Shown here: piece by piece, positions 33,901 to 34,673 of the stretch
Numbering within the stretch: the stretch's first letter is position 1
How the letters are laid out: each line of letters starts with the position of its first letter
NCBI GenBank assembly: GCA_021800535.1
Contig: JAJYYV010000004.1
Span: 16,007-80,006, forward strand
DNA: 64,000 bases
Origin: a bacterium
GTDB lineage: Bacteria > Ratteibacteria > UBA8468 > B48-G9 > DTJG01
Direction: 5' to 3'
Made by a program: the position numbers and the translations under genes
Notes under the pieces: generated by a model
What the model was told of the DNA's origin: nothing
The model's input: the letters and a program-made list of their open reading frames with translations, nothing else
Databases searched by the model: none

Positions 33901-33918
33901 ACATGGATATAAAATAAT

Positions 33919-33980
33919 TCCGGCGTAGCTTCAGCCAAAGGCTGATCCGCCGTGGCGGACAATGAAGCGTGGAGCATCCG
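33919..33980 (+). pseudogene. tRNA-Asn 5'-half-like fragment with a 41-nt two-hairpin insertion replacing the D-loop
   Basis: TCCGGCGTAGCT[TCAGCCAAAGGCTGA TCCGCCGTGGCGGA ...]GGAGCATCCG, compared with intact TCCGGCGTAGCTCAATGGTAGAGCATCCGG. 20-nt identity (AAAATAATTCCGGCGTAGCT) with the start of the real tRNA. Confidence 0.4.
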
Positions 33981-34228
33981 TGAAGTATTATATATATGTA
34001 TTAAAAAGTACAGTTATTCAAAAGAGATATATTGGATATACATCAAAAGATCCTTGGAAACGATTAAAAGAACATAATCAGGGTGGTAATAAATGGACAA
34101 GAAGTGTTCGGCCTTTAGAATTAATTTATTATGAAACTTATGACACTTCTCAAGAAGCAAGAAAACGGGAAAAATTTCTCAAAACAGGTAGGGGCAGAGA
34201 GTTTCTTTCTAAAATAATTCCGGCGTAG
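33962..34228 (+). CDS. small GIY-YIG nuclease (YhbQ/UPF0213-like)
   Basis: KYYIYVLKS...YIGYTS...RLKEHN...RPLELIYYE...EARKREKFLK. Probable true start is GTG at 33980. The last codons are the 5' end of tRNA-Asn. Confidence 0.7.
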   Translation: MKRGASVKYYIYVLKSTVIQKRYIGYTSKDPWKRLKEHNQGGNKWTRSVRPLELIYYETYDTSQEARKREKFLKTGRGREFLSKIIPA

Positions 34229-34530
34229 CTCAATGGTAGAGCATCCGGCTGTACAATTGCAGCTTCCACAAGAAATTGTGGTTGAAAAATCAGGTGAATT
34301 CAGGGGAATCCATTTTTTTAATGGACAATCCTGAGCCAAGTTCTGAGTATATCTCAGAAAAGGTGCAGAGACTATCCCAGAAGGGAGTACTCTCCGTTTA
34401 TAACGGAGCGGAAGCGCCTGACACCTTATTTTCAAAACTTTGAAAAAAGGTGAAGATATAGTCCAAGCCTTAAAGTAATTTAGGGGCACTTGTAACCGGA
34501 GGGTTGTAGGTTCGAATCCTACCGCCGGAG
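34219..34530 (+). tRNA. tRNA-Asn (anticodon GUU) interrupted by a group I intron (exons 34219..34252 and 34493..34530)
   Basis: Acceptor TCCGGCG/CGCCGGA with discriminator G. D-arm GCTC-AATGGTA-GAGC. Anticodon stem TCCGG/CCGGA. Spliced loop CUGUUAA. T-arm GTAGG-TTCGAAT-CCTAC. Confidence 0.8.
34253..34492 (+). ncRNA. group I (IC3-like) self-splicing intron in the tRNA-Asn anticodon
   Basis: 5' exon ends in U. P1 pairs exon GGCUGU with IGS GCAGCU (34259..34264) and closes with U.G. P2 is CCACAA-GAAA-TTGTGG. GAGCCAAGTTCTG and AAGGTGCAGAGACTA closely match Azoarcus tRNA-Ile intron GAGCCAAGCUUCG / GAAGGUGUAGAGACUA. The intron ends in G. Confidence 0.8.
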
Positions 34531-34552
34531 CTATGAAGTTATACTTTGAAAG

Positions 34553-34653
34553 GTAGGATTCGAATAGAGCGAAGTAAGGGATTATGAGCGAGCGTAACAA
34601 TCCCAGCGAGTGGCCGACCCCAAGTGTAGTGAGAACGAGGGGCGCCGAATCCT
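34553..34653 (+). pseudogene. tRNA-Asn 3'-end duplicate (T-arm + acceptor) with a 79-nt insertion in the T-loop
   Basis: GTAGGATTCGAAT[...79 nt...]AATCCTACCGCCGGAG. The insertion is flanked by a CGAAT direct repeat. Confidence 0.5.
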
Positions 34654-34673
34654 ACCGCCGGAGTTTTAATCTC

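Follow-up and report, generated by a model that had tools for sequence, protein, structure and literature searches.

A tRNA-Asn gene as the probable host of a target-restoring GIY-YIG nuclease cassette, a group I intron and a small downstream element

The 64,000-nucleotide stretch of DNA analysed here (the window) lies on contig JAJYYV010000004.1 of a Ratteibacteria bacterium (assembly GCA_021800535.1, positions 16,007 to 80,006 of the forward strand). It contains a tRNA-Asn(GUU) gene that is probably the host of three unrelated selfish insertions: a 300-bp cassette with a GIY-YIG nuclease gene, a group I intron and an element of about 130 bp on the downstream side (Table 1). The evidence favors reading the cassette as a homing-type, tRNA-targeting nuclease unit that keeps its target functional. 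The intron and the ~130-bp element are independent passengers of the same tRNA gene. All the features listed by an earlier note on this DNA, made from the sequence alone, are present with small coordinate corrections. However, its treatment of the three features flanking one another as a single unit did not hold, because relatives separate the cassette, the intron and the downstream element.

The tRNA gene adopts a canonical tRNA-Asn(GTT) fold once the intron is removed in silico. Its 5′ end lies in the second copy of an exact repeat (TAAAATAATTCCGGCGTAGCT, 100% identity) with a spacing of 300 nt; the repeat was correctly described as exact in the earlier note but is 21 rather than 20 nt long. 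From left to right, the cassette consists of a double-hairpin (DH) module, a few tRNA bases, the GIY-YIG gene and a fresh tRNA 5′ end. The two hairpins had been taken for a 41-nt insert replacing the D-loop. They form instead a 29-nt module between tRNA positions 12 and 13, after which the tRNA sequence resumes with CAATG, is interrupted by an AAGC insertion and continues with GTGGAGCATCCG. Without the DH module and AAGC, the displaced copy is identical to positions 1–29 of the real tRNA except at position 20 (G versus A). The G is the state found in relatives, a difference at a single site that is too little to build on. The resumed tRNA stretch provides a GGAG sequence (33971-33974) and both candidate start codons of the nuclease gene. 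At its other end the gene overlaps the tRNA by 10 nt (tRNA positions 1–10), its last codons being, as previously noted, the first tRNA bases and its TAG stop corresponding to tRNA positions 8–10. Because the cassette carries the part of the tRNA that lies 5′ of the insertion point, an insertion between positions 12 and 13 would shift the old 5′ end upstream and rebuild an intact gene downstream.

Table 1. Positions of the features at the tRNA-Asn locus of the window and of related introns and downstream elements in other loci
Feature	Locus	Position	Strand	Description
Displaced 5′ copy (repeat copy 1)	window	33910..33930	+	9-nt upstream flank TAAAATAAT plus tRNA-Asn positions 1-12 (33919-33930)
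Cassette	window	33931-34230		300 bp, inserted between tRNA positions 12 and 13
DH module	window	33931..33959	.	29 nt, TCAGCC-AAA-GGCTGA / TCCGC-CGTG-GCGGA; nested palindrome; clean insertion between tRNA positions 12 and 13
Resumed tRNA stretch	window	33960..33980	+	positions 13-17 CAATG, 4-nt insertion AAGC (33965-33968), positions 18-29 GTGGAGCATCCG
GIY-YIG nuclease gene	window	33962 (ATG, 88 aa) or 33980 (GTG, 82 aa)..34228	+	Pfam PF01541; assigned to the minimal SLX1/UPF0213 type
Repeat copy 2	window	34210..34230	+	right end of the 300-bp cassette; restores the tRNA 5′ end
tRNA-Asn(GUU) exon 1	window	34219..34252	+	34 nt, 3′ end CUGU; spliced form called as tRNA-Asn gtt (ARAGORN)
Group I intron	window	34253..34492	+	240 nt, anticodon loop of tRNA-Asn; RF00028, 100.7 bits, E = 2e-26
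tRNA-Asn exon 2	window	34493..34530	+	38 nt, through discriminator G; CCA not encoded
Downstream element	window	34531..34663	+	21-nt spacer, inverted arm, 80-nt interior, 18-nt direct repeat, then TTTT
Inverted copy of T loop and 3′ T stem	window	34552-34565		within downstream element
Interior with conserved hairpins	window	34566-34645		80 nt (79/80), bounded by CGAAT
Direct repeat of tRNA 3′ end	window	34646-34663		18 nt, exact
Downstream element family (~110-135 nt)	window	34531-34663
Downstream element family	L092	2694-2826
Downstream element family	L094	3907-4260
Downstream element family	L111	3670-3791
Downstream element family	L066	2984-3089
Group I intron	L012	2704-2939
Group I intron	L020	2759-3003
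Group I intron	L033	2769-3036
Group I intron	L047	748-1102
Group I intron	L089	1406-1648
Group I intron	L098	4384-4672
Group I intron	L157	1902-2232

An empty site for the cassette is found in the closest relative. Relatives were located via the neighboring PorB gene, which in many of them is followed (in many cases after ZnR) by an intact, intronless tRNA-Asn gene. In the closest one (L110; PorB 94% identical), ZnR precedes an intact, intronless tRNA-Asn with the same 9-nt flank and with no nuclease, no hairpins and no 5′ fragment. Hence, the nuclease gene, which lies outside any intron, is present in the window and absent at an otherwise conserved site. A protein identical to that of the window is encoded on 22 contigs with the same neighbors, and in L010, whose context is unrelated, the gene of a 60% identical homologue and an intronless tRNA-Asn are arranged in the same way.

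The arrangement in the window recurs widely. A scan of one genome per GTDB species yielded at least 528 related loci, and the best 80, holding 89 copies of the nuclease open reading frame (ORF), were kept for analysis. These 80 are distributed among Omnitrophota, many Patescibacteria, Planctomycetota, Bacteroidota, Ignavibacteria, Elusimicrobiota and others. Sixty of the 89 ORF copies are followed within 250 nt by a complete tRNA of the same strand; the outermost positions of their stops are 38 nt into the tRNA and 148 nt short of it. Fifteen isotypes are represented beside these 60 copies (Asn 24, Lys 7, Arg 5, Val 4, Ala 4, Pro, His, Ile and others). The ORF and the tRNA overlap in 25 of the 60, and 12 copies stop as in the window, at a TAG at tRNA positions 8–10. 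In most loci, the tRNA's own first 12–37 nt are repeated 60–100 nt upstream of the ORF. A mirror order is seen in 11 copies, with a complete tRNA followed by the ORF, the DH module and then the tRNA 3′ end from the T loop on. Furthermore, the ORF together with its neighboring complete tRNA is bracketed by partial tRNA copies in L010, L053, L074 and L088. The downstream partial tRNA of L074 and the complete tRNA beside its ORF differ in the T arm and acceptor stem, which points to different histories.

Tandem arrays of the cassette (L024, L028, L040, L052, L076, L081, L085 and L087) define its repeat unit. The unit is composed of a DH module, a few tRNA bases, the ORF and the tRNA from position 1 to x, placed between positions x and x+1, or in mirror form of the tRNA from x+1 to its end, the ORF, a few bases and the DH module. 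The arrays of L024, L028, L040 and L081 repeat the unit seen in the window. With a unit of this composition, the ORF always ends up between a partial and a complete copy of a single tRNA. One metagenome-assembled genome has two cassettes, at tRNA-Ala and tRNA-His (L032, L035). The earlier note's suggestion of a mobile unit made of a tRNA fragment and a GIY-YIG gene thus fits the upstream half of the locus, given the range of isotypes and phyla, the tandem arrays and the empty orthologous site. It had also considered that relatives might have the GIY-YIG gene beside an intronless tRNA-Asn without any fragment duplicates; family members do occur beside intronless tRNA-Asn genes, and the fragment duplicates are present there.

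Some loci depart from the common plan. In Melioribacter (L052; L085, 2400-2830; L051, 2290-2730), a mirror-form cassette at tRNA-Cys is tandemly repeated and has a single hairpin (CCCGCC-TTA-GGCGGG) in place of the tRNA segment from the anticodon to the T loop. L052 is a whole 666-nt contig of Melioribacter sp. OK-6-Me (753x coverage according to the contig name), and in L085 a run of N interrupts the assembly at the cassette repeat. In L058 (2745-3015), the cassette is followed on its 3′ side by a tRNA-Ala copy cut at the anticodon (…CATTTG), a shorter GIY-YIG-like ORF (MFYCYILKSQADKSFYVGSCKDL…) and then tRNA-Ala. This suggests that different nuclease subfamilies may stack at one tRNA.

Sequence comparisons assign the cassette protein to the SLX1/UPF0213 (YhbQ-type) branch of the GIY-YIG superfamily, as previously proposed. 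The ORF matches PF01541 with an E value of 2e-15 and 57.2 bits (cut-off, 22.6) over residues 8–75, and an alignment of 23 homologues shows Y12, Y23, G25, R34, H38 and E70 to be invariant or nearly so. No Asn is conserved after the catalytic E70, a trait shared with the minimal, stand-alone GIY-YIG domains of the SLX1/UPF0213 branch (PMC1564403). Indeed, the nearest solved chains in a PDB profile search were UPF0213 proteins (1ywl, 1.9e-11; 1zg2, 4.4e-11), then SLX1 (1.5e-5), with I-TevI at just 9e-3. A separate DNA-binding domain is absent from the protein (82–88 aa) and its homologues (79–93 aa). Most of the aligned homologues start with MYYIYVLKS and a GGAG precedes GTG 33980 by 5 nt, so that both ATG 33962 and GTG 33980 are possible starts. 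Of the 83–88 aa given by the earlier note, the 88-aa form and the GTG codon stand, but the shorter form has 82 aa. A search of a cultured-phage collection returned just three weak protein matches. Within the ORF, about 100 nt 5′ of the tRNA, there is a sigma-70-like promoter match (34094-34121; TGGACA-16-TAGAAT, 10/12), to which we give little weight, and a promoter scan of the region found sigma-70-like matches no more often than expected from shuffled sequence.

The DH module of the window has a predicted fold of −15 kcal/mol (z = −2.05) and belongs to a family of 79 modules. The association with the nuclease is not due to chance: 356 kb of GIY-YIG loci yielded 77 modules and 440 kb of control loci none, and the 64-kb window has a single one. 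Moreover, the GIY-YIG ORF is the only gene consistently linked to the module, which thus lacks the HUH (Y1) transposase partner of IS200/IS605-PATE or REP-RAYT hairpin elements. Both stems follow the pattern YCMGCC/GGCKGR. The first loop is RRA (AGA in 22 modules, AAA in 21, GAA in 10, GGA in 7), with a final A in 67 of 68 modules, and the second is TYY (TCT in 18, TTT in 16, TCC in 12, TAT in 8), with an initial T in 64 of 68; only 3 of the 68 have two exactly complementary loops. With loops of this pattern, the reverse complement of the module has the same format and reads alike on both strands, and both orientations of the DH pattern match the same viral loci on opposite strands. Mismatches of the outer pair are as often T.G as C.A (19 versus 18), so neither strand is favored. 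This strand symmetry argues for a role at the DNA level rather than in RNA only. Furthermore, variants with loops of 9–11 nt retain the stems, which points to extruded hairpins rather than to a duplex site of fixed spacing.

Insertion of the module is clean, with the tRNA resuming at position x+1, in 35 of 41 upstream modules. The sites lie between positions 17 and 18 (9 modules), 12 and 13 (8), 28 and 29 (8) and 36 and 37 (4–5), and the mirror form uses T-loop sites. In all isotypes, the tRNA homology stops 3–11 nt past the ORF-proximal module. The intron site (after CTGT), at which the homology of the partial copy ends in many Asn loci, was rejected as a meaningful endpoint, being a by-product of this 3–11-nt rule. 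Searches of Rfam 15 gave no match for the DH module or the downstream element (thresholds, E ≤ 1 for the window region and supported matches at E ≤ 0.5 for 11 related loci), and the only matches in the window region were the intron and the tRNAs. A weak BTnc005 match in L081 was discarded as a terminator or AT-rich artefact.

DH modules also occur alone. Solo modules are present on eleven viral contigs, where no tRNA lies closer than 800 nt; they occupy short gaps between genes and, in one case, lie in frame within a gene. A family-profile search of the ORFs on these contigs gave one marginal GIY-YIG match (E = 0.0015; L173), several kb from the module. The in-frame module (L179, 6540-6569; L180, 826-855) adds 10 codons (…FPPEADQPSAEK…) to a 137-aa phage ORF and recalls the Rickettsia palindromic elements; other viral solo modules are located 10–20 nt upstream of start codons. 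A conserved nested palindrome that is also found alone in viral contigs agrees with the earlier idea that the small inserts may themselves be tiny mobile elements.

We propose that the nuclease would be expressed by read-through from the tRNA promoter and that RNase P cleavage, by removing the stop codon located in the tRNA, would keep the protein scarce. The enzyme would cut tRNA genes at conserved D-arm, anticodon or T-loop positions, and host recombination would then repair the break from a cassette-bearing copy, the flanking tRNA sequences serving as the two homology arms. The tRNA piece brought along would restore the gene and, with it, a site that can be cut again. Tandem arrays and the colonization of many isotypes would both be explained by a rebuilt tRNA that stays a target. 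The DH module would mark the junction and is probably a cis-site of the nuclease or an immunity mark that disrupts the site. We infer this homing-type cycle from the catalytic-type residues kept by the protein, its proximity to UPF0213 structures and to the structure-specific nuclease SLX1, and the experimental precedent of the phage enzyme SegB.

The same data can be read without any mobility. A survey of the superfamily from 2006 viewed the SLX1-like proteins of prokaryotes as minimal repair enzymes with mostly vertical inheritance, derived the selfish GIY-YIG enzymes from the other (UvrC+) lineage and did not mention a linkage to tRNA genes (PMC1564403). The ORF could accordingly be a housekeeping YhbQ/SLX1-like repair nuclease co-transcribed with the tRNA, the tRNA fragments could be debris of local duplications and the hairpins ordinary mRNA-stabilizing or regulatory stem-loops. 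The dependence of the ORF on read-through from the tRNA promoter is consistent with this, as is the position of the DH module, namely the 5′ untranslated region in the usual arrangement and just 5′ of start codons on viral contigs. Yet such a resident gene is very improbable: the closest relative has an empty site, one and the same architecture recurs across unrelated phyla beside 15 isotypes, both in two mirror forms and as tandem arrays, the module lies downstream of the ORF in the mirror form, and an RNA-only role does not predict loops that are symmetrical on both strands. In contrast to what has been described for the SLX1/UPF0213 family, its members here behave as parts of mobile cassettes.

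Several observations weigh against the homing-type cycle. The cleavage activity of the protein and its target are predictions, and the protein lacks a DNA-binding domain. At the putative site, the rebuilt tRNA and the displaced copy do not differ, so the cassette has no obvious self-immunity. In 12 of 39 loci, at least 4 nt of the upstream flank are common to the two tRNA copies, as are 9 nt in the window, versus a null expectation of 1.4%; three of these 12 are tandem-array artefacts (L039, L059, L087). A shared upstream flank is better explained by duplication or conversion in situ than by import from a foreign donor. Prokaryotic SLX1-like proteins are, as stated above, regarded as vertically inherited (PMC1564403). 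The length of the DH loops (long versus short) appeared to co-vary with protein clade in a neighbor-joining ordering, but a permutation test was negative (p = 0.5). Finally, a hydrolytic nuclease does not explain a conserved 30-bp palindrome placed without target duplication, and the solo modules of viral contigs have neither a tRNA nor a gene of this kind anywhere near them.

These last two points raise the question of whether the palindrome itself is the mobile element. If it behaved like a REPIN or a miniature inverted-repeat transposable element and was cut and pasted in trans by the GIY-YIG protein, the nuclease gene would be beside tRNAs merely because modules accumulate in the dispensable partial tRNA copies there. 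The precise insertions without target duplication suit this explanation, and so do the several modules within one partial tRNA copy (L013, L039, L071), the viral solo modules with no GIY-YIG gene nearby, two solo modules in non-tRNA sequence of GIY-YIG loci (L058, L074) and a two-fold symmetry appropriate for a dimeric DNA enzyme. We nevertheless consider it unlikely. About 72 of the 77 modules are within 450 nt of the ORF, with no large dispersed population and just one module in the 64-kb window. In addition, GIY-YIG enzymes only hydrolyze, so that ligation would need the host, and the constant presence of a partial and a complete copy of the same tRNA around the ORF is left unexplained. A possible, though doubtful, alternative is a minimal mobile system, of a type so far undescribed, in which an SLX1-like nuclease of about 80 aa recognizes both the 30-bp palindrome (extruded or duplex) and conserved tRNA-gene boxes, and moves the palindrome and its own gene together with a target-repairing piece of tRNA. 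The solo insertions, even those in phage genes, would then be palindromes moved by that nuclease. A more extreme variant would have the adjoining tRNA-derived segment act as a nucleic-acid guide.

The homing-type cassette reading has its closest characterized analogue in SegB. SegB is a free-standing GIY-YIG homing endonuclease encoded in a tRNA gene cluster of phages T4 and T6 (PMC2330249; PMC13096335). The enzyme recognizes a conserved motif of the T loop (RAWTSGAAC) and cuts there within tRNA genes; tRNA and segB are thereby amplified in tandem in a recombination-dependent manner, and SegB is statistically associated with tRNAs of many isotypes (PMC13096335). The two systems have in common a GIY-YIG nuclease gene among or beside tRNA genes; the sections consulted on SegB do not mention a double-hairpin module or a displaced partial tRNA. 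Unlike SegB, the window enzyme is an SLX1/UPF0213-type domain of 82–88 aa on chromosomes of bacteria and the candidate phyla radiation. SegB is much larger, with about 220 aa and a C-terminal DNA-binding part, and would fall in the homing endonuclease/UvrC lineage. As in Seg-like systems, the cassette gene lies outside the intron and is variably present at a conserved site. Site-specific cleavage of the allele lacking the gene and subsequent gene conversion are predicted, with the clean junctions at conserved tRNA positions and the tandem arrays as indirect signs only, and the DNA-binding domain for long recognition sites is missing.

The DH module has its own counterparts. The double-hairpin elements of Allomyces mitochondria and the REPIN-RAYT systems involve short, G+C-rich, two-hairpin or palindromic elements whose precise insertions occur between genes, in introns and even within coding sequence. 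Such elements either accompany a single enzyme gene or border mobile endonuclease ORFs; RAYTs are HUH transposases. DH modules differ in host compartment, sequence and enzyme, and in lying within partial tRNA copies beside a GIY-YIG gene.

We also identified in the tRNA-Asn gene a group I intron that can occur without the cassette. A homologous intron is inserted at the same position in two loci that lack the nuclease (L098, L157), and 24 cassette loci have an intronless tRNA-Asn. Therefore, the intron and the cassette are independent, though often found together. To our knowledge, tRNA-Asn is not among the classical bacterial tRNA hosts of such introns (Leu, fMet, Arg, Ile). Group I introns after CUGU in the anticodon loop of tRNA-Asn(GUU) are recurrent in several unrelated uncultivated lineages, and the intron of L098 has ~85 extra nt near its 5′ end.

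A functional tie between nuclease and intron found no support in these comparisons. Collaborative homing, an established concept (PMC3984707), would be a tie of this kind. In such a scheme, a free-standing nuclease would cut the intronless tRNA-Asn near the intron site, the intron would protect the gene and the two would spread jointly, in the manner of F-CphI/psbA or mobE/I-TevIII. The locus resembles such systems in that a free-standing nuclease gene lies immediately beside the intron-containing copy of a conserved gene. Indeed, the cassette is directly 5′ of an intron-bearing tRNA-Asn not only in the window but also in at least five other loci confirmed with RF00028 (L012, L020, L033, L047, L089) and in L034, where the intron was recognized by sequence alone and did not reach the Rfam gathering score. 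One common tRNA-Asn site of the module, between positions 28 and 29, is, furthermore, just 6 nt from the intron site. However, a joint system of this kind is quite improbable: most cassette loci are intronless, the 14 other isotypes are intron-free, the intron and the nuclease each occur alone in relatives, the module of the window is far from the anticodon loop (between positions 12 and 13) and the intron is not clearly more frequent with the cassette (~7/31) than without it (2/17).

The ~130-bp element downstream is, from its distribution, an older, separate insertion with repeats resembling attachment (att) sites. Starting 21 nt past the tRNA, the sequence reads GGTAGGATTCGAAT, 80 nt and CGAATCCTACCGCCGGAG, the final 18 nt being the tRNA 3′ end. 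The left arm (GGTAGGATTCGAA) is the exact reverse complement (13/13) of the T loop and the 3′ T stem. The earlier note had recognized the copy of the tRNA 3′ end but placed it 22 nt downstream (34553..34653) rather than 21 nt past the discriminator base (34552-34663). It also described a 79-nt T-loop insertion whose CGAAT bounds are confirmed, but whose left arm cannot be described just as the 5′ T stem copied directly. The fold of the insert is more stable than expected (z = −2.78), and among relatives one position of an internal hairpin shows three different Watson-Crick pairs.

Relatives without the nuclease have the same element after tRNA-Asn (L092, L094, L111 and L110, the last truncated at a synteny break), and its arms match the local T arm in each of them. 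L094 has at least two tandem copies and the truncated start of another. L092 and L105 are a filled and an empty site, respectively. Its presence in nuclease-less relatives and its own filled/empty pair indicate that the element is a separate and older insertion. A related copy follows tRNA-Leu in L066, with a common right-end motif (TGGCCGACC...GGAGGCGC). The family has a common plan, in which a conserved interior is preceded by the local T loop and T stem in reverse-complement form (left arm) and followed by a direct copy from the T loop to the tRNA 3′ end (right arm). The 21-nt spacer (ATGAAGTTATAC...) was ruled out as the remnant of a second ORF, because relatives with the same element have unrelated spacers. 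The T-loop inserts in L055 and L059 have the same architecture of an inverted and a direct target copy, but their sequence similarity to the 80-nt interior was unconvincing.

The integrase-like events invoked by the earlier note are the best available description of this downstream fragment. Known likenesses are the tRNA-targeting integrative elements and the folded-hairpin attP of elements that exploit Xer, such as CTX-phi. The downstream element resembles them in its direct repeat of the tRNA 3′ end, its tandem copies, its filled/empty polymorphism and its inverted and direct target copies ~80–90 nt apart; it differs in its tiny size, in lacking a recombinase gene and in targeting the T loop of a tRNA gene rather than dif. 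No recombinase gene was found within or beside it: the ~130 bp have no ORF, and the neighbors are the nuclease cassette and nikR. It is extremely unlikely that both flanking fragments are scars of tRNA-targeting integrative elements, left by a tyrosine or serine recombinase encoded elsewhere. The 18-nt repeat, the L092/L105 pair and the tandem copies in L094 are as expected from repeated integration at tRNA 3′ ends, but of the two flanking fragments the downstream element alone combines a 3′-end direct repeat with an empty site. On the upstream side, it is the tRNA 5′ end that is duplicated, an end not regenerated by integrases; the upstream unit encodes a nuclease rather than a recombinase, and no recombinase gene lies between the repeats. 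In viral contigs, a scan with GAGCGAAGTAAGNGRATT gave 11 matches, all attributed to chance on their context and mostly in apparent coding sequence. A looser pattern (TGGCCGACC...GGCGCCGAR) gave at least 120 matches and was judged uninformative on expectation alone.

In kind, the cassette would be a known one, a free-standing GIY-YIG endonuclease cassette aimed at tRNA genes, and its new features are the DH module and the target-regenerating architecture. Full-text searches aimed at the cassette, its protein family and its analogues found no description of the cassette or the palindrome; most subscription journals lay outside their coverage, and a prior description is possible. Within the SLX1/UPF0213 "repair" branch, the selfish cassettes linked to tRNA genes make up a large group that spans phyla and numbers at least 528 loci in species-representative genomes. 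For annotation, such cassettes yield partial tRNA copies, overlapping ORF and tRNA annotations and tandem repeats that break assemblies, as in the 666-nt Melioribacter contig at 753x. The conserved DH module, tied to an enzyme without a DNA-binding domain, makes target finding by a small nuclease directly testable. Furthermore, by bringing along the displaced piece of the gene, the cassette would invade an essential gene harmlessly, in a way that is distinct from hiding in a self-splicing intron or an intein.

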